64,000 nucleotides of DNA from Eubacteriales bacterium (GTDB taxonomy: Bacteria > Bacillota > Clostridia > Oscillospirales > CAG-272). The notes beneath the pieces were generated by a model. That model was not told the origin of the DNA. It saw nothing but the letters and a program-made list of their open reading frames with translations, and made no database searches. Shown one piece after another: positions 1,528 to 39,350 of this stretch. The position numbers were made by a program, and so were the translations under genes. The DNA is taken from assembly GCA_045653805.1 (NCBI GenBank), contig JAZOMF010000075.1, forward strand, positions 1,112 to 65,111, given 5' to 3'. Every line of letters starts with the position of its first letter. Position 1 is the stretch's first letter.

Positions 1528-3942
1528 ATGTACAGCGTTCAAAAGAGAGACGGAAAAATCGTAGAATTCAATTTGAGCCGCATTTCGGATGCTATCAGAC
1601 TTGCATTCGAAGCTCAGGAAAAGCAGTTTAACCAGAATATCATCGACTTCTTGGCACTCAAGGTCACCGCAGATTTTGAGAACAAGATCAAGGACGGACT
1701 TATCGCAGTTGAGGACATCCAGGACAGTGTAGAGTCGGTTCTCGTTCAGGCAGGATATGCAGACGTTGCAAAGGCATATATTCTTTACCGCCGCCAGAGA
1801 GAAAAGCTCAGAAACGTTCAGGGTACAGCTCTCGACTACAAGGAAACCGTTGATAAGTACCTCCAGGCTCTTGACTGGAGAGTTAAGGAGAACTCTACCG
1901 TTACCTACTCCGTAGGTGGTCTTATCCTTTCCAACTCCGGCGCTATCACCGCTAACTACTGGCTCAGCGAGGTTTACGACGATGAGATCGCAAACGCGCA
2001 CAGAAACGTTGATATCCACATTCACGACCTTTCCATGCTCACCGGCTACTGTGCAGGTTGGTCGCTCAAGCAGCTTATTCAGGAGGGTCTCGGCGGTGTA
2101 ACCGGTAAGATCACTTCCTCTCCCGCAGGTCACCTTTCCACCCTCTGCAACCAGATGGTAAACTTCCTCGGTATCATGCAGAACGAGTGGGCAGGCGCGC
2201 AGGCATTCTCCTCCTTTGATACATACCTCGCTCCCTTCGTAAAGGTTGATAACCTTTCCTATAAGGAAGTAAAGCAGTGCATCCAGTCTTTCATTTACGG
2301 CGTAAATACTCCTTCCCGTTGGGGTACTCAGTCTCCTTTTACCAACATCACTCTCGATTGGACCGTTCCTAACGACCTTGCGGAGCTTAACTGTATCGTT
2401 GGCGGCAAGGAAATGGACTTCAAGTACAAGGATTGTAAGAAGGAAATGGACATGATCAACAAGGCGTTCATCGAGATCATGATCGAGGGCGACGCGAACG
2501 GCCGTGGCTTCCAGTATCCTATCCCCACCTACTCCATCACCCGTGACTTCGACTGGTCCGAAACCGAGAACAACAAGCTTCTCTTCGAGATGACCGCAAA
2601 GTACGGTACTCCTTACTTCTCCAACTACATTAACTCCGATATGGAGCCTTCTGATGTTCGTTCCATGTGCTGCCGTCTTCGTCTTGACCTTCGTGAGCTT
2701 CGTAAGAAGTCCGGTGGTTTCTTCGGAAGTGGTGAGTCCACAGGATCTGTCGGCGTTGTAACTATCAACATGCCCAGAATTGCTTACCTTGCAGAGAACG
2801 AAGAGGACTTCTACAAGCGACTTGATAAGCTTATGGACATCTCCGCTCGCTCCCTCAAGACCAAGAGAACCGTTATCACCAAGCTCCTTGATGAGGGTCT
2901 GTATCCTTACACCAAGAGATACCTCGGTACCTTCAACAACCACTTCTCGACCATCGGTCTCGTTGGTATGAACGAGGTTGGTCTTAATGCTAAGTGGCTC
3001 AGAGCAGATATGACTCATAAGGAGACCCAGGAGTTCACCAAGAACGTTCTCAACCACATGAGAGAGAGACTTTCCGACTATCAGGAAATGTACGGCGACC
3101 TCTACAACCTTGAGGCAACTCCCGCAGAATCCACCTCTTACCGCTTCGCAAAGCACGATAGAAAGAGATGGCCCGACATTATTACTGCTACCGATAATGT
3201 AAAGGCTCCTTACTACACCAACTCCAGCCATCTTCCTGTTAGCTACACCGAGGACATCTTCGACGCTCTCGATATTCAGGACGAGCTCCAGACCCTCTAC
3301 ACCTCGGGTACTGTATTCCATGCATTCCTCGGTGAGAAGCTTCCCACTTGGAAGAGTGCAGCTAACCTTGTCCGTAAGATTGCAGAGAACTACAAGCTTC
3401 CTTACTACACCATGTCTCCCACATACTCTGTATGTGTTGATCACGGATATATAAACGGTGAAGAGTACACCTGTCCCAAGTGCGGTAAAAAGACCGAGGT
3501 TTATAGCCGAATCACCGGCTACTACCGTCCCGTTCAGAACTGGAATGACGGTAAGAGCCAGGAGTTCAAGGAGAGAAGAACTTACAACATCGATCGCTCC
3601 ACCCAGCTTCACCCCGAGATAAACATCGGTACTGATAGCGTAAGAACTATCAACATGATCACCGAGCCCGTTGTGGAGGAAGAGTGCGTATGCGAGACCG
3701 CAACAGGCAAACAGATCCTTCTCTTCGCTACCAAGACCTGTCCCAACTGCAAGATCGCAGCTGAATTCCTTGAGAAGGCGGGCTTTGAGTTTGAAAAGCT
3801 TTATGCAGACGAGCATCTCGATCTTGTTGCTCTGTACGGAATTAAGCAGGCTCCCACCCTCGTAGTTGTTGAGGACGGAGTTGAGATTGCCAAGGCCGCA
3901 AACCTCTCCAACATAAAGAAGTTTATTGAAACTTCTCTCTAA
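1528..3942 (+). CDS. nrdD: anaerobic (class III) ribonucleoside-triphosphate reductase with fused C-terminal thioredoxin-fold (CPNC) domain
   Basis: 804 aa with RBS AGGAGA. It has an ATP-cone-like N-terminus, an SMCCRLRL loop, a CPKC Zn-ribbon and the glycyl-radical motif SRITGYYRP. About 40 aa of linker follow, then KQILLFATKTCPNCKIAAEFL...APTLVV. Confidence 0.9.
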   Translation: MYSVQKRDGKIVEFNLSRISDAIRLAFEAQEKQFNQNIIDFLALKVTADFENKIKDGLIAVEDIQDSVESVLVQAGYADVAKAYILYRRQREKLRNVQGTALDYKETVDKYLQALDWRVKENSTVTYSVGGLILSNSGAITANYWLSEVYDDEIANAHRNVDIHIHDLSMLTGYCAGWSLKQLIQEGLGGVTGKITSSPAGHLSTLCNQMVNFLGIMQNEWAGAQAFSSFDTYLAPFVKVDNLSYKEVKQCIQSFIYGVNTPSRWGTQSPFTNITLDWTVPNDLAELNCIVGGKEMDFKYKDCKKEMDMINKAFIEIMIEGDANGRGFQYPIPTYSITRDFDWSETENNKLLFEMTAKYGTPYFSNYINSDMEPSDVRSMCCRLRLDLRELRKKSGGFFGSGESTGSVGVVTINMPRIAYLAENEEDFYKRLDKLMDISARSLKTKRTVITKLLDEGLYPYTKRYLGTFNNHFSTIGLVGMNEVGLNAKWLRADMTHKETQEFTKNVLNHMRERLSDYQEMYGDLYNLEATPAESTSYRFAKHDRKRWPDIITATDNVKAPYYTNSSHLPVSYTEDIFDALDIQDELQTLYTSGTVFHAFLGEKLPTWKSAANLVRKIAENYKLPYYTMSPTYSVCVDHGYINGEEYTCPKCGKKTEVYSRITGYYRPVQNWNDGKSQEFKERRTYNIDRSTQLHPEINIGTDSVRTINMITEPVVEEECVCETATGKQILLFATKTCPNCKIAAEFLEKAGFEFEKLYADEHLDLVALYGIKQAPTLVVVEDGVEIAKAANLSNIKKFIETSL

Positions 3943-35313: not shown

Positions 35314-35715
35314 ATGTATACTAGTGCAAAGCCCTACTTCTACGGTACCGGTAGAAGAAAGAAGTCTGTTGCTCGTGTAAGAATTTACCCCGGTAACGGC
35401 AATATCACCATCAACGGCAAGGACATCGACACCTACTTCGGTCTCGAGACCCTTAAGCTCATCATCAACCAGCCTTTCGGCGTAACCGGCACTACCGGCA
35501 AGTTCGACATCGTTGCTAACGTAAACGGTGGCGGTATCTCCGGTCAGGCAGGTGCAATCCGTCACGGTGTAGCTCGTGCGCTCATCACCGCAGACGAGAA
35601 CTACCGTCCCGCTCTCAAGGCAGCTGGATTCCTCACCAGAGACCCTCGTATGAAGGAAAGAAAGAAGTACGGACTCAAGGGCGCTCGTCGTGCTCCTCAG
35701 TTCTCCAAGAGATAA
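35314..35715 (+). CDS. rpsI: 30S ribosomal protein S9
   Basis: 133 aa ending in the canonical RRAPQFSKR. Confidence 0.95.
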
Positions 35716-35777
35716 TTACCCGTTTGGAATTATTTCGATATACAAAAAGCTCTGCTATGCAGGGCTTTTTGTTTTGC
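35703..35777 (+). repeat. T0: native rpsI 3' end (ctccaagagataa) plus terminator; template of repeats T1 and T3
   Basis: ctccaagagataattacccgtttggaattatttcgatatacaaaaagctctgctatgcagggctttttgttttgc. Terminator stem at 35748-35766. Confidence 0.85.
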
Positions 35778-35794
35778 AGGGCAATGCCTTAGTG

Positions 35795-35846
35795 CCGCCG
35801 TTTTTGATTATGAATTTTTGCGGCGGGAGCAAGCCCCCCGCCCTAC
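35795..35846. repeat. R0: GC-rich hairpins ending in CCCTAC (REP-like when read on minus strand: GTAGGG...)
   Basis: ccgccg...cggcgg and ggcggg/cccgcc stems followed by ctac. Confidence 0.5.
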
Positions 35847-35855
35847 GTTTATGGG

Positions 35856-35940
35856 CGGTTCAATTTGTAAAAATTCTGCCGTCCTATTTACTTTTCGCCG
35901 TTTTTATGGTATAATCTAACTAATCGATAAACTTGAATTT
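35856..35940 (+). promoter_or_regulatory. P1: portable promoter/5'UTR module, copy 1
   Basis: cggttcaatttgtaaaaattctgccgtcctaTTTACTtttcgccgtttttaTGgTATAATctaactaatcgataaacttgaattt. Confidence 0.7.
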
Positions 35941-35957
35941 GTTTAGGAGGTATAAAT

Positions 35958-36281
35958 ATGTTTGGGTTGTTTGCTAAAAAGGTTATGAACGAAGAAGCGG
36001 CTAAGTGTTTTTGGGAATGGTTTGCTGAAAAAGAAGAATGGATTATCAGCTGTATTTCCAATCACGACTCCGCATTTGTATGGGCAATTGATGAAAAGTT
36101 AAAACCGGTATTCCCTTATTTCAAGGGAGAACTCGAATTCCAGCTTGGATACAACGATGGCGTTGGAGAATTTTTCTTCTTTCACTTTGGAAAGAAAGAC
36201 CTTGCTCGTGATGGCGAAGCTTTAGGGAAGATGATGCCTCCGGAGATCGCAAAAAATTGGAAACTTATTCTTGAAAAATAA
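35958..36281 (+). CDS. cassette gene A: 107-aa hypothetical cytoplasmic protein
   Basis: AGGAGG RBS. No motif I can recognise. Confidence 0.6.
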   Translation: MFGLFAKKVMNEEAAKCFWEWFAEKEEWIISCISNHDSAFVWAIDEKLKPVFPYFKGELEFQLGYNDGVGEFFFFHFGKKDLARDGEALGKMMPPEIAKNWKLILEK

Positions 36282-36288
36282 ATTGACC

Positions 36289-36468
36289 AATTCCAATTTG
36301 TCGAGAAAAATAGCGTTGAATGTTGGTGTGATTTTTGGTGCAAATTTGGTGCAACACTTTATCAAACGATACTCACGATATTCACGATATCGCACGAAAA
36401 CACACGATAAAGCTACGATATCACACGTATTTCCACGATATTCACGATATCAAACAGTATTGCTAAAA
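36289..36468 (+). repeat. I1: iteron-rich conserved 3' module, copy 1
   Basis: tttggtgcaa occurs twice at 11-bp period. Eight (C/T)ACG(A/T)(A/T) cores are spaced 9-11 bp apart. Near-identical to I3 except for a 31-nt insertion. Confidence 0.8.
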
Positions 36469-36543
36469 CTCGAAGAGATAATTTCTGCCTTACAGAGATT
36501 ATTTCGATATACAAAAAGCTCTGCTTCGGCAGAGCTTTTTGTT
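36469..36543 (+). repeat. T1: displaced copy of rpsI last codons (ctcgaagagataa) plus terminator
   Basis: The in-frame remnant still reads S-K-R-stop (TCC to TCG is synonymous). Terminator agctctgc-ttcg-gcagagct plus T-tract at 36517-36543. Confidence 0.8.
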
Positions 36544-36546
36544 ATT

Positions 36547-36573
36547 GTAGGGGCGTTCATTGAACGCCCCTAC
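36547..36573. repeat. R1: perfect 13-bp-arm palindrome gtaggggcgttca-t-tgaacgcccctac
   Basis: Read directly: GTAG head and CTAC tail. Confidence 0.7.
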
Positions 36574-36582
36574 GGACAAGAG

Positions 36583-36664
36583 CGGTTCAATTTGTAAAAA
36601 ATTGAACTGTTCTATTTACTTTTTGCAAAAATTATGGTACAATACAACTGATAAATAAACTTGA
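36583..36664 (+). promoter_or_regulatory. P2: portable promoter/5'UTR module, copy 2 (diverged)
   Basis: cggttcaatttgtaaaaaattgaactgttctaTTTACTttttgcaaaaattaTGgTACAATacaactgataaataaacttgaaa. Includes an 8-bp hairpin gttcaatt/aattgaac. Confidence 0.6.
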
Positions 36665-36677
36665 AAGGTAATTTATT

Positions 36678-37028
36678 ATGGCAGTTTACGATGCAAACAA
36701 TCTTGATATTGAAGCTGTTAGGAAAGATGGTGTTGTTGAACTATTCATCATATCGTCCGGCAAGTTTGATGACAGTGCTGAACAGCAGACTTTGCTTATG
36801 GATAAAATAGAAAACTATATAGGCTATGTTTTAAGCGACGAATTTAAAATCAAGCACCATGATTGTTCGAAGGAAAAAATTTGGATTGTACTAAGTTTAG
36901 AAAAAAAGCCCGGTAATTTGCTTGTGGAATTATGCAGAAAAATCCACCCATGGGTTAAGTCATATGGAATCAATTATAGAGTAGAATACAAATCGTTGTT
37001 TGGACAATACCGAAATTTAATTATATAG
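36678..37028 (+). CDS. cassette gene B: 116-aa hypothetical protein
   Basis: Weak RBS aaagg and a TAG stop. The pattern recalls small immunity-like proteins, from memory only. Confidence 0.55.
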   Translation: MAVYDANNLDIEAVRKDGVVELFIISSGKFDDSAEQQTLLMDKIENYIGYVLSDEFKIKHHDCSKEKIWIVLSLEKKPGNLLVELCRKIHPWVKSYGINYRVEYKSLFGQYRNLII

Positions 37029-37064
37029 CGACAAATTCCATATGACTTTTTGTGTTTTATTGGA

Positions 37065-37092
37065 AGGGACAGTCGAGGACGCCTGTCCCTAC
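37065..37092. repeat. R2: hairpin agggacag/ctgtccct ending in CCCTAC
   Basis: 8-bp stem. It occupies the same position relative to the P module as R0 and R1. Confidence 0.55.
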
Positions 37093-37103
37093 AAGACATA
37101 GGA

Positions 37104-37189
37104 CGGTTCAATTTGTAAAGAATTGAGCCGTCCTATTTACTTTTTGCCGTTTTTATGGTATAATCTAACTAATCGATAAACTTGAATTT
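37104..37189 (+). promoter_or_regulatory. P3: portable promoter/5'UTR module, copy 3 (almost identical to P1)
   Basis: cggttcaatttgtaaagaattgagccgtcctaTTTACTttttgccgtttttaTGgTATAATctaactaatcgataaacttgaattt. 10-bp hairpin cggttcaatt/aattgagccg. Confidence 0.7.
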
Positions 37190-37208
37190 GACAAAGGAGA
37201 ATATACTT

Positions 37209-37853
37209 ATGAAGAAAAGCATTTATTTAATATGTTTACTTTTAGTTTCTTGCCTTGTTTTCTCGTCCTGCTCTAAATCGGCAGGTCTTAATATAGGATT
37301 TGATGGAAGAATGGGACAATTGCCCGAGGTTTATTTTGGTGTGAAAAGCGATAAAACGGAGTTTAATATTGATGATGTTACTCTTGATTTTTCATACGGA
37401 GACGGAAGTGTTTCCGATGTAGAGGGTTATGTTGGCGGTGATAATGGAGAAGATTGCCCAATCGTCTGTATTGCCGTATATTTCTTTAATGCAAAGCACC
37501 AAGATACTGTAACAAGTTTTGGAGAGGCTCGTTTTGAAGATTATAAAGAAATCGAGGGGGTGTATTTTGTAAAAGAAATCAGCCTTGATGATTACAATGA
37601 AAATTATGATGTGGAAAATAGTTTTTGGGGTTGCAAATACGAACATACCGAAACCTTGACAATTCCCGAAGAAGTTATGGAACTTTCTACAGGTTATGCT
37701 TGTCTTGGCGTTTTTCAGATAGTATATATTCCTTCAGAAAATTTGTATCGTATTGTTGGCGGCGAATACCAAGCCTTAAAATACGAAAAACTTGACGGAG
37801 ATATGGTAAAAATATCAAAGCCCATAGGAAGCCACTACGAAGCCCCCAAATAA
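37209..37853 (+). CDS. cassette gene C: 214-aa lipoprotein of unknown function
   Basis: AAGGAGA RBS and lipobox LVFSSCSK. The track start at 37182 is rejected. Confidence 0.65.
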   Translation: MKKSIYLICLLLVSCLVFSSCSKSAGLNIGFDGRMGQLPEVYFGVKSDKTEFNIDDVTLDFSYGDGSVSDVEGYVGGDNGEDCPIVCIAVYFFNAKHQDTVTSFGEARFEDYKEIEGVYFVKEISLDDYNENYDVENSFWGCKYEHTETLTIPEEVMELSTGYACLGVFQIVYIPSENLYRIVGGEYQALKYEKLDGDMVKISKPIGSHYEAPK

Positions 37854-37864
37854 TAAAGCCGCAA

Positions 37865-38011
37865 AATTCCAATTTATCGACCAGAACAGCGTTGAATGTG
37901 GTGTAATTTTGGTGCAAATTTGGTGCAACACTTTATGCGACAATACTCACGATGTTCACGATATCGCACGTATTTCCACGATATTCACGATATCAAACGG
38001 TACTCTCAAAA
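37865..38011 (+). repeat. I3: iteron-rich conserved 3' module, copy 2
   Basis: Aligns with I1 base for base over most of its length. Five CACG(A/T)(A/T) cores at 9-10 bp spacing. Confidence 0.8.
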
Positions 38012-38087
38012 CTCCAAGAGATAATTACCCATTTGGGATTATTTCGATATACAAAAAGCTCTGCTTCGGCAGAGCTTTTTGTTTTGC
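38012..38087 (+). repeat. T3: second displaced copy of rpsI end (ctccaagagataattaccc...) plus terminator
   Basis: Matches T0 over about 75 nt. Its terminator is identical to that of T1 (UUCG loop), at 38057-38085. Confidence 0.85.
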
Positions 38088-38091
38088 GGTG

Positions 38092-38170
38092 CGGTTCAAT
38101 TTGTAAAAACTCTGCCATCCTATTTACTTTTCGGGAATTTTATGATATAATGCAACTGTTATATAAACTC
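38092..38170 (+). promoter_or_regulatory. P4: promoter module copy 4, contiguous with T3 (candidate ancestral rpsI-GNAT intergenic arrangement)
   Basis: cggttcaatttgtaaaaactctgccatcctaTTTACTtttcgggaattttaTGaTATAATgcaactg... Confidence 0.6.
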
Positions 38171-38190
38171 TGATTGGACGAGGTACAAAT

Positions 38191-38802
38191 ATGAACGCAA
38201 AGTTCAAGATTAACGAATTTGTTATAGAAACTGAAAGATTAATTTTACGTCCGTTTAAGCAATCTGACCTGCACGATTTTTACGAATACGCTTCTGTTCC
38301 GGGTGTTGGCGAAATGGCCGGTTGGAAGCATCACGAAACCATCGAAAAATCTCAAGAAATATTGGATATTTTTATTAAAGAAGATAAAACCTTCGCTATT
38401 GTTTTAAAAGAGAACAACAAGGTAATAGGTTCTCTTGGCATTGAAAAATACGGACTTGAGGACAAGCTGACAGAATTTAATAGTTATTATGGACGTGAAA
38501 TCGGTTACGTATTATCTAAGGATTACTGGGGAAAAGGCATAATGCCTGAAGCGGTAATGGCTGTAATTAACTATTTGTTCAACAATTTGCAGTTCGACTT
38601 TTTGACCTGTGGATATTATAACTTTAACAACCAATCAAAGAGAGTTCAGGAAAAGTGTGGGTTTAAGCCTTATAGAAAACTTACTATGGATACTCGTTTA
38701 GGTACGAAAGAACCCGGTGTCCTAAATTTACTTATCAATCCCGCAAAAAACATTTCTCTTGCGTTCTCTCATCCCGAAACGTTGATTTATAAATGGTGCT
38801 AA
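38191..38802 (+). CDS. GNAT N-acetyltransferase (RimJ/RimL-like)
   Basis: 203 aa with the typical ETERLILRPF N-terminus and a GKGI...A acetyl-CoA motif. Confidence 0.8.
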   Translation: MNAKFKINEFVIETERLILRPFKQSDLHDFYEYASVPGVGEMAGWKHHETIEKSQEILDIFIKEDKTFAIVLKENNKVIGSLGIEKYGLEDKLTEFNSYYGREIGYVLSKDYWGKGIMPEAVMAVINYLFNNLQFDFLTCGYYNFNNQSKRVQEKCGFKPYRKLTMDTRLGTKEPGVLNLLINPAKNISLAFSHPETLIYKWC

Positions 38803-38825
38803 AATTCAATTTGAAGAGGTATTAA

Positions 38826-39107
38826 ATGAAAAAATCATTTGCATGCAGTGTAATATGCCAAGGTGGAATAGTTGGCGGTAGTCTTTCTATTGACGAAAAA
38901 TCCATCACCTACAAGACAAATAAGCTTACCGTAGACAGCAAATACAGAAACCTCGTTTTGCCGCTCATTGGCATCAGAGAGCTTTCGTGGAAATGGATAG
39001 TTTTCCCCGTGGCAACCTTATACATGACAAACGGGGAACAGTATAAGTTCATAATATTCAATAAAAAAGGGTTCAACGAATACTTTGCCGAAGTCATGCA
39101 ACTTTAA
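38826..39107 (+). CDS. 93-aa hypothetical protein (possibly bacterial PH-like fold)
   Basis: RBS AGAGG. The fold guess is weak. Confidence 0.5.
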   Translation: MKKSFACSVICQGGIVGGSLSIDEKSITYKTNKLTVDSKYRNLVLPLIGIRELSWKWIVFPVATLYMTNGEQYKFIIFNKKGFNEYFAEVMQL

Positions 39108-39130: not shown

Positions 39131-39159
39131 TTGACAAACTAAAAAATTGGTGATATAAT
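39131..39159 (+). promoter_or_regulatory. perfect extended consensus promoter TTGACA-N17(TGa)-TATAAT
   Basis: ttgacaaactaaaaaattggtgatataat. Confidence 0.75.
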
Positions 39160-39193
39160 AAAACTACCAAAATTTTCAGGAGGAATAAATACT

Positions 39194-39307
39194 ATGGCAA
39201 GACTTCTTTCTTTCGGTTGTGAGGCGATCGTATCCGCACCCGCGTTAATTCTTATCGCCGTATCTGTAGTTAGCTCTGTTGTAGTTTTCTTTAAGAAAAA
39301 GAAATAA
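39194..39307 (+). CDS. 37-aa hydrophobic peptide with KKKK tail (not in ORF track)
   Basis: AGGAGG RBS 10 nt upstream. Sequence MARLLSFGCEAIVSAPALILIAVSVVSSVVVFFKKKK, TAA stop, two hairpins downstream. Confidence 0.6.
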   Translation: MARLLSFGCEAIVSAPALILIAVSVVSSVVVFFKKKK

Positions 39308-39350
39308 TATAAATAACGGCGGAAAATATCCGCCGTTATTTCATATAAAA

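Follow-up and report, generated by a model that had tools for sequence, protein, structure and literature searches.

What could be the function of a repeat-rich DNA module that is found twice downstream of a ribosomal protein gene, each time next to a displaced copy of the end of that gene? This situation was observed in a 64,000-nucleotide stretch (hereafter the window) of contig JAZOMF010000075.1 of an Eubacteriales bacterium, where rplM-rpsI is followed by a 3.6-kb array of small same-strand genes bounded by the convergent gpmI, as seen in the open reading frame (ORF) list of the window. The gene rpsI (ribosomal protein S9) is located at 35314-35715 and the two modules, here named I1 (36289-36468) and I3 (37865-38011), are part of the array; the genes, units, core copies and repeats described below for the window lie on the + strand. 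In our opinion the module is, with good probability, the element-side arm (the P arm, now in attR) of the attachment (att) site used by a family of small integrative elements whose target gene is rpsI and whose insertion point is its stop codon. In a preliminary description of this DNA the repeats had been likened to arm-type integrase or excisionase sites placed on one side of a recombination core, as in attP or attR, and this view is now supported by the junctions of polymorphic units, by the int and Xis-like genes that neighbor related modules, by a doublet present on two arms, and by the co-variation of this doublet with the integrase.

The composition of the modules was verified in the first place. 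I1 and I3 align base for base, as had been described, except for a single 31-column gap. The motif TTTGGTGCAA has exactly four sites in the 64 kb (36334, 36345, 37908 and 37919), and exact motif search thus locates two 11-bp doublets, at 36334-36354 in I1 and at 37908-37928 in I3, in agreement with the tttggtgcaa pair previously reported for each module; this is the proposed arm-type site for the N-terminal domain of the integrase. The motif CACGATAT has 8 sites in the window where 1.76 would be expected, and seven of these eight are inside the two modules. Downstream of the doublets, YACGWW cores were found on the + strand at 36374, 36383, 36393, 36403, 36414, 36424, 36434 and 36443 in I1 (steps of 9, 10, 10, 11, 10, 10 and 9) and at 37948, 37957, 37967, 37977 and 37986 in I3, so that the eight and five same-strand cores at 9-11 bp spacing could be reproduced. 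Over the whole window this motif is not enriched (220 seen, 208 expected), and therefore the signal is its local, same-strand, phased clustering. The complete iteron array of I1 (36364-36461) consists of nine ACG cores and one degenerate unit with a period of ~9.8 bp, and that of I3 (37929-38004, five YACGWW cores) is a derivative of the 147-nt form described below with a 31-nt (three-unit) deletion. The first ~18 nt of the module, here called the LEFT repeat, are a separate element which is missing from integrase-linked modules. In I1 this repeat (CAATTCCAATTTGTCGAG, 36288-36305) marks the 3' boundary of the cargo and is found in 25 units; in I3 (CAAAATTCCAATTTATCGAC, 37862-37881) it was delimited by the I1/I3 alignment and by a repeat survey of units.

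To place the module in a wider context, one genome per species was scanned with the 20-nt doublet. At least 120 loci are present among the matches listed, most of which hold the complete module, and their hosts are almost all Oscillospiraceae, Acutalibacteraceae, Faecousia and other Eubacteriales metagenome-assembled genomes from animal guts; in all, the module is known from >100 species-level genomes. The order of its parts is LEFT repeat, ~28-nt spacer, doublet, iterons and AAAACTCNAAGAGATAA, and beyond the rpsI-end motif the downstream sequence diverges from genome to genome. In 39 loci rpsI and rplM are located 1.7-3.8 kb upstream of the module. Measured from the doublet start to the stop-codon copy, 47 of 72 modules have a length of exactly 147 nt, including some that are only ~55-60% identical, and the other doublet-to-END lengths (87, 116, 126, 156, 176 etc.) are shifted by whole repeat blocks. 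The 31-nt difference between the two window modules had been taken as an insertion in I1; since the 147-nt, I1-like form is the family norm, it has to be read in the opposite sense, I1 being the standard form and I3 the one that lost 31 nt, that is, three repeat units. The consensus presents ten ACG cores at +31, 40, 49, 59, 69, 80, 90, 100, 109 and 119 from the doublet start (steps of 9, 9, 10, 10, 11, 10, 10, 9 and 10; mean period 9.8 bp), a count that includes AACGAT and the degenerate last unit. Four diverged groups of modules hold their ACG cores in one phase, and ACGATATT at +100 is invariant in all four group consensuses. A degraded coding sequence, an origin of the module that had been contemplated beforehand, was rejected, as the ORFs across the module read through the terminator and the length variants are indels of ~9-10-nt repeat units, not of codons.

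Searches outside this group of genomes gave few matches. The module had no BLAST match in the phage and plasmid collections, and a scan of viral contigs returned 5 hits only, none of them in an rpsI context, which correspond to other elements with the doublet. As a separate observation, the exact 20-nt doublet TTGGTGCAAATTTGGTGCAA, for which about one chance match would be expected over the whole collection, is also present in unrelated phyla (Olsenella, Proteobacteria, Terriglobia; L048, L118, L102, L072, L085, L051 and L201/L204), often less than ~100 bp from the end of a tRNA or tmRNA gene and adjoining a distantly related integrase (23-24% identity). It was also noticed that modules are frequently at contig ends, so that metagenome assemblies may be interrupted at rpsI by the repeated backbone.

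Because each module lies between the stop codon of a cargo gene and an intrinsic terminator, it should be transcribed, and every repeat is on the sense strand. Both features would suit an RNA element, either a structure of the 3' untranslated region (3'UTR) or a phased array for an RNA-binding protein, affecting the stability or termination of the cargo mRNA. The RNA structure that had been raised as an alternative, to be looked for by covariation among homologous modules, did not appear: single sequences folded no better than their shuffled versions, whichever strand was taken (z = -0.59 and +0.10), 18 diverse modules gave a consensus fold of -2.2 kcal/mol with zero covarying pairs, and an Rfam search of the module at gathering and permissive thresholds gave nothing relevant. 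Furthermore, in the integrase-linked and P'-arm contexts presented below, the doublet comes after the terminator hairpin. We consider a role as RNA very improbable.

The relation of the module to recombination is best seen at its end. Each module is closed by CTCNAAGAGATAA, which comprises the last rpsI codons plus the stop codon and has window sites only at 35703, 36469 and 38012 (0.02 expected); a terminator hairpin copy comes after each of them. The first core copy, CTCCAAGAGATAA at 35703-35715, is the last 13 nt of rpsI, that is, the true end of the gene and the attL copy. The second, CTCGAAGAGATAA at 36469-36481, is a displaced rpsI end that serves unit 1 as attR junction and unit 2 as junction on the attL side, and the third, again CTCCAAGAGATAA, at 38012-38024, is the attR junction of unit 2/3 and is followed by the terminator T3 (38051-38082). 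The window presents, then, three core copies and two to three stacked units flanked by att repeats at rpsI: the integrase-less unit 1 of 766 bp (35716-36481) and unit 2/3 of 1543 bp (36482-38024).

Comparison with other contigs showed that these units are polymorphic. Unit 1 is missing from contigs L215 and L216, in which an identical rpsI end runs into T1-P2-gene2 with 100% identity to window positions 36482-36690; the window therefore holds an extra 766 bp (35716-36481) bounded by CTCNAAGAGATAA(TT). In L223, rpsI is joined straight to the block of promoter P4 and the GNAT gene, in L222 and L224 another unit is attached at that core (the 38012-38024 junction), and L219 has another terminator variant. 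The neighbors of the DUF6572 gene also differ from contig to contig. Between species, the identity of the module is nearly independent of that of rpsI (r = 0.17) and is always above the rpsI third-codon-position identity. Junction polymorphism together with this decoupling points to a site-specific gain or loss of units, for which, judging from these alignments, vertical decay alone would be insufficient. Three traits of an att arm are found at this locus and its relatives: the core is duplicated as direct repeats at the ends of the insert, at the junction of occupied versus empty sites; direct-repeat sites unlike the core are present at fixed core distances on the arms; and int adjoins the arm in the autonomous members (L021, L059, L121 and L017), with seven other lineages having their own doublet. 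In the same way, the att flanks, the lack of an integrase and the tandem related units are those of cis-mobilizable elements (CIMEs) or decayed integrative and mobilizable elements (IMEs) at rpsI.

Another aspect to mention is the sequence right after the core. The 13-16 nt that follow each core copy vary, being TTACCCGTTTGGA at 35716-35730, TTTCTGCCTTACAGAG at 36482-36497 and TTACCCATTTGGG at 38025-38037, and each of these blocks is a small hairpin within a larger palindrome, GATAATT...AATTAT. In L222 and L223, one and the same downstream terminator is paired with different post-core blocks, a situation that recalls the coupling sequences of Tn916-type elements.

The autonomous relatives encode the enzymes that the window units do not have. 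In L021, L059 and L121, a tyrosine integrase of ~380 aa (PF00589, PF14659, PF22022) is encoded directly upstream of the module, and int is followed in order by a terminator, two to three TTGGTGCAA copies, the iterons, ...CTCCAAGA(A/G)ATAA and the host terminator; in L021 the two terminators enclose TTGGTGCAA in triplicate, an iteron block of 147 nt that has diverged, and ...CTCCAAGAAATAA. The L021 integrase (380 aa) has PDB relatives that include the Tn1549 and lambda integrases, and the family has a conserved N-terminal extension of ~60 aa. A gene for a helix-turn-helix (HTH) protein of 64-66 aa (66 aa in L021) lies immediately upstream of int in the relatives. The integrase-linked modules have degenerate iterons and perfect doublets or triplets. 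A more complete organization was found in L017, where rpsI, core, terminator, doublet, a tyrosine recombinase (YR)-like gene, Rep_OBD-helicase, ArdA, Xis-like, Int, inverted repeat IR13 and promoter follow one another; L017 is an IME-like element. Its IR13 begins 12 nt after the int stop codon, and both the inverted repeat and the promoter are those seen in the window. Several integrase-less units in other genomes retain the last int codons upstream of IR13, from which it follows that the window-type backbone arose by deletion from an L017-type element. Apart from Int, a second, short tyrosine-recombinase-like protein (315-332 aa) was noticed as the product of the first gene past the P' arm in L017 (887-1834) and L021 (765-1763). 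The L017 copy matches models of SAM-like N-domains, and the L021 copy shows by eye an HxxR...Y tail, together with a weak match to the topoisomerase-I catalytic core.

The presence of a Rep_OBD-helicase protein in L017-type relatives has to be considered together with the phased direct repeats, which are typical of replication iterons. According to this alternative, already mentioned as a fallback in the preliminary description, the repeats would bind the Rep initiator of an excised circle, or a repressor in the manner of an operator array. Replication iterons are not supported, because no rep gene is found near the window modules, nor elsewhere in the window, and most cassette units have none either; in L017, ardA, xis and int lie between the Rep gene (2265-3788) and the module side; the units measure ~9-10 bp and not 17-22 bp; and they keep a constant position with respect to the recombination core. 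Operators are unlikely because the module is located 3' of the cargo gene and not over its promoter. Both versions are, in our view, extremely improbable. DnaA boxes and Tn7-like ends were dropped as well, since the motifs mismatch and the comparative context explains the layout.

The doublet is not restricted to the module. In at least 15 loci it is also found 77-80 bp past the true rpsI stop (69 bp in one outlier), after the terminator hairpin, and in this way the core has this tandem motif on both sides, at about -147 and at about +79; the ACGAT array is present only between doublet and core on the int-proximal arm. The relation with the integrase was evaluated through a metagenome scan with an integrase alignment, a test that is unbiased because the loci were retrieved by protein and not by motif. 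Integrase relatives 30-43% identical were recovered, most of them adjoining the rpsI 3' end, and each lineage presents its own tandem doublet just after int, ~50-80 bp from the rpsI end wherever that end is visible. These doublets are TAAAGACCAAG (2-3 copies; L125, L126, L154), TTGACCAAA (2 copies; L128-L146), TTGAACAA (2 copies; L136, L139, L141, L142), GTTGTCCA (2 copies; L149-L153, L167), TTGTCGTGAG (4 copies; L124), GATGTCC (3 copies; L122, L014) and TTGGTGTTT (2 copies; L157-L165). Such a co-variation, drawn from sequence comparison, is the strongest argument for the doublet as the arm-type site of the integrase.

The roles could also be exchanged: the integrase would use the ACGAT iterons as its arm-type sites, and the TTGGTGCAA pair would bind an excisionase, a repressor or a host factor. 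Doublet and iterons are, indeed, both direct repeats near int, and ACGA-type cores also occur after the TTGGTGTTT doublets of the remoter integrases (L157-L165), being thus shared more widely than the doublet. However, it is the doublet, unlike the iterons, that is present on both arms at fixed distances and that switches with each integrase lineage, and it is the iterons that are degenerate in the integrase-linked modules with perfect doublets or triplets. We regard this exchange of roles as decidedly unlikely. With respect to the partner of the doublet, the L014 integrase was rejected, as it belongs to a neighboring GATGTCC-type element in an accretion. L014 (1673-1900) and L018 (1650-1900) present elements of different integrase and arm type in tandem at one rpsI core, for instance a GATGTCC-type element beside a TTGGTGCAA-type one, and in some arrays a deletion between two doublets fuses the P' arm to the P arm.

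With the module taken as the P arm of an rpsI-specific att site, the doublet is best read, by analogy, as the integrase arm-type site, the iterons as an array for a recombination directionality factor (RDF) or bending protein, and the rpsI end as the crossover core; the assignment of the doublet to Int and of the iterons to the RDF is made from layout and analogy. In the mechanism that we propose, a heterobivalent tyrosine integrase of the Tn916/lambda type would be supplied in trans by an autonomous relative and would place its N-terminal domain on the tandem TTGGTGCAA pair and its catalytic domains on the core, CTCNAAGAGATAA(TT), at the rpsI end. The ~100 bp between doublet and core hold ten same-strand ACGAT(A/T)(A/T) units, one per helical turn, and we propose that this stretch is coated head-to-tail by a bending protein, which may be a small excisionase (RDF) of the winged-helix type. 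The coating would bring the arm round to the core and determine in which direction recombination proceeds. Repeated integration at the rpsI-proximal core would stack the units in tandem, each incoming unit adding its own rpsI end and terminator and shifting the older copy downstream. The layout would suit an RDF array, with phased repeats between arm site and core and a small HTH gene, a candidate for the RDF, beside int.

It should be noted that several observations weigh against this interpretation. No int or Xis gene was detected in the 64-kb window (best tblastn E = 2.1), and for this reason the window units would be non-autonomous (CIME-like) and reliant on a trans-acting enzyme. Units of the window type are devoid of TTGGTGCAA on the P' side of the core, and classical lambda-type integration employs arm sites on both arms. 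The arm-binding domain PF14657 is weak in the integrases, being detected in 4 of 18 relatives with a best E of 0.018, and the profile search gave no PDB hit for the Int N-terminal domain. The Xis-like HTH protein matches HTH_17 only weakly (E = 0.18). Finally, the doublet was the key of the scan, so its invariance in the scanned loci holds by construction.

Some of these points would also suit a fossil scar, namely true attR arms that are inert leftovers of IME integration and deletion and are kept by recent descent only. Such an origin would be consistent with the lack of int and xis in the window, with a P' side without arm-type site, with the three iterons gone from I3, and with the last int codons that elsewhere precede IR13 as traces of deletion from an L017-type element. 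Inert leftovers are, nevertheless, unlikely: the backbone is kept in >100 species, with an identity far higher than that of rpsI third positions and no coupling to the divergence of the hosts; 53 different cargo starts are found behind the same promoter and site; the 766-bp unit is precisely present or absent between near-identical contigs; and the 147-nt length is strongly retained. The units of the window may thus still be mobilisable and not recent fossils.

The content of the units follows a common plan. Unit 1 includes T0 (35742-35772), IR13 (35854-35884), the promoter P1 (35887-35915), a cargo ORF of 107 aa (35958-36281) and I1. Unit 2/3 contains T1, two IR13-promoter sets, two genes and I3: its first part carries T1 (36511-36542), IR13 (36579-36613), P2 (36615-36643) and the DUF6572 gene (36678-37028), and its second part IR13 (37098-37136), P3 (37136-37164), a gene for a lipoprotein-like protein of 214 aa (37209-37853) and I3. 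The innermost block (38090-39107) presents IR13 (38090-38120), P4 (38123-38151) and a GNAT acetyltransferase gene (38191-38802), and in its 3' part a fused repeat, AAAATTCAATTTG (38801-38813), and an ORF of 93 aa (38826-39107). By exact-protein look-up, gene2 and gene4 were traced to other short contigs, and no record was obtained for gene1 and gene5. The four promoters are strong (TTTACT, 17-nt spacer, TG-n-TATAAT), and promoter plus 5' untranslated region (5'UTR) are near-identical in >20 species-level genomes, with different cargo each time. IR13 is a 13-7-13 inverted repeat, GGACGGTTCAATT-TGTAAAG-AATTGAGCCGTCC, which abuts the -35 box of every cassette promoter and shares TTCAATTTG. Its shape is that of a simple tyrosine-recombinase site or operator, and a terminator scan also calls it a hairpin. 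Ahead of IR13, a variable GC-rich hairpin is followed by CCCTAC and 6-10 nt (35783-35853, 36553-36580 and 37060-37097); either a scar left by a deletion or a small repeat of independent nature might account for this segment, which is also present in the integrase-less units of many other genomes.

The cargo of each unit is located between imperfect inverted repeats of ~18 bp, TCGATAAACTTGAATTTG ... CAAATTCCAATTTGTCGAG, which coincide with the limits of backbone conservation (pairs 35924-35941/36288-36305 and 37173-37190/37862-37881); the LEFT repeat at 36288-36305 corresponds imperfectly, in inverted orientation, to the 5'UTR element TCGATAAACTTGAATTTG at 35924-35941. The window gene3 was found with 99.6% identity in an unrelated GC-rich context, MscS - nucleotidyltransferase (NTase) - ScmC - gene3 (L206, 5965-6665), and this identity spans exactly from AAACTTGAATTTG to CCAATTTATC, i.e. 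between the cargo-flanking repeats. In six contexts, stacked genes are joined by CAAATTCCAATTTG and then a ribosome-binding site. The flanking repeats, the limits of gene3 identity, the CAAATTCCAATTTG junctions, IR13 and the 53 different cargo starts that follow one and the same site suggest, only tentatively, that a second, integron-like capture layer may exist on the rpsI-targeting elements. It would consist of a capture platform directly after int, formed by IR13, by the strong promoter that hardly varies and by an entry site (...AAACTTGAATTTG). Promoterless cassettes with CAAATTCCAATTTG at their end would be taken up behind this entry site and accumulate there as a stack. The capturing recombinase would perhaps be the second simple tyrosine recombinase of the L017 and L021 elements, and the integrase-less units of 0.8-1.5 kb would be trans-mobilised platform carriers across Oscillospiraceae. 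Two facts count against this layer, since the identity boundary of one cargo pair is at the start codon and not at a site, and L021 has the second recombinase and no platform. As for integrons themselves, no IntI was found, the units are promoter-equipped, and only short CAAATTCCAATTTG junctions are present between some stacked genes.

Other features of the cargo regions were recorded. Pairing of the cargo-flanking repeats as RNA, between 5'UTR and 3'UTR, was rejected, as the 5' variants TAGAT, TCTAT and TCAAT are uncompensated in LEFT. The gene junctions of the type CAAATTC(C)AATTTG (38801-38820 in the window; L078, L087, L088, L098 and L222) look like fused 3' and 5' cargo repeats. Beyond the innermost block, at 39131-39308, the gene of a hydrophobic 37-aa peptide with a KKKK tail (MARLLSFGCEAIVSAPALILIAVSVVSSVVVFFKKKK) is preceded by a ribosome-binding site and by a promoter that matches the consensus perfectly (TTGACA, 17-nt spacer, TG-n-TATAAT). 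Two hairpins come after this gene, which is conserved in L222-L224 and may encode a type I toxin, or else a small membrane protein.

As a whole, these results describe an att-site architecture, supported by comparison, in gut Clostridia that form a large uncultured group, with an rpsI-stop core, doublets on two arms and a phased array of ten units. They also reveal promoter-equipped single-gene cassettes of less than a kilobase that are apparently gained and lost at the end of a ribosomal protein gene without an integrase of their own. The cargo carried by the units includes acetyltransferases, nucleotidyltransferases and small membrane proteins. If the units are mobilised in trans, accessory genes would have in them a way to spread through the gut microbiome that is integron-like in function and lambda/Tn916-like in mechanism.

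[quoted passage not shown] A case in Clostridia, the rpsI ICE of Roseburia named ICE_RhoA2-183_rpsI, is given in PMC12904643. The likeness to the streptococcal elements (e.g. IMESag-rpsI; PMC5090054, PMC5357655) concerns the target gene end, the tyrosine integrase in autonomous members, the gene-end direct repeats as flanks and the tandem related or decayed units (CIMEs). No description of a doublet-plus-ten-iteron arm was found in the portions searched of this rpsI literature (PMC5357655, PMC5090054, PMC12904643). The non-autonomous units measure here only 0.77-1.5 kb, compared with a mean of 10 kb reported for streptococcal IMEs (PMC5357655). Besides, in contrast to the streptococcal elements, the hosts here are Oscillospiraceae-type Clostridia, and each unit carries a near-invariant strong promoter and one or few cargo genes.

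Regarding the arm itself, the P arm of lambda attP has the order P1-H1-P2-X1-X1.5-X2-F and is served by a heterobivalent Int and by Xis. As in lambda, the proposed arm-type sites are separate from the core, present on both arms and at a fixed spacing to the core, and the phased sites proposed for the RDF lie only between arm site and core, on one arm. The sequences are unrelated, however, there are ten phased units instead of three Xis sites, no IHF sites are evident, the integrase is not in cis, and the roles are assigned here from sequence layout. In Tn916, subterminal direct repeats are bound by the Int N-domain. The likeness to Tn916/Tn1549 resides in an integrase related in sequence (PDB hits 6emy/6emz), in a small HTH Xis-like gene just upstream of int, and in a variable block of 13-16 bp beside the core in otherwise identical junctions, which recalls heterologous coupling sequences. 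In contrast to these transposons of AT-rich targets, the elements described here are specific for the rpsI stop, have no conjugation module and carry their cargo behind a dedicated promoter.

For the iteron array, the X1-X4 sites of the L5/Pukovnik Xis and the Cox boxes of P2 are head-to-tail direct repeats about one helical turn apart. Winged-HTH proteins such as the RDF RdfS, and BldC, form head-to-tail filaments on direct repeats in which every DNA turn takes up one protomer (PMC11963761). The array described here resembles all of these in its direct repeats about one turn apart beside a recombination core, where a filament that bends the DNA is proposed to nucleate, and differs from them in being longer (10 units, ~98 bp) and more regular, its cognate protein being only a candidate. 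With integrons and IMEX hitchhikers, the units share their small, mostly single-gene size, their accumulation at one chromosomal site, a recombinase that comes from elsewhere, and cargo that includes GNAT and nucleotidyltransferase genes. Unlike them, there is neither IntI nor an attC hairpin, and each unit is equipped with a promoter of its own and with an att site that is complex and bears an arm; the units are members of neither class. The mechanism is, in summary, of a known kind, and what distinguishes it is the host group, the ten-unit array, and the very small, promoter-bearing, integrase-less units distributed across >100 species.

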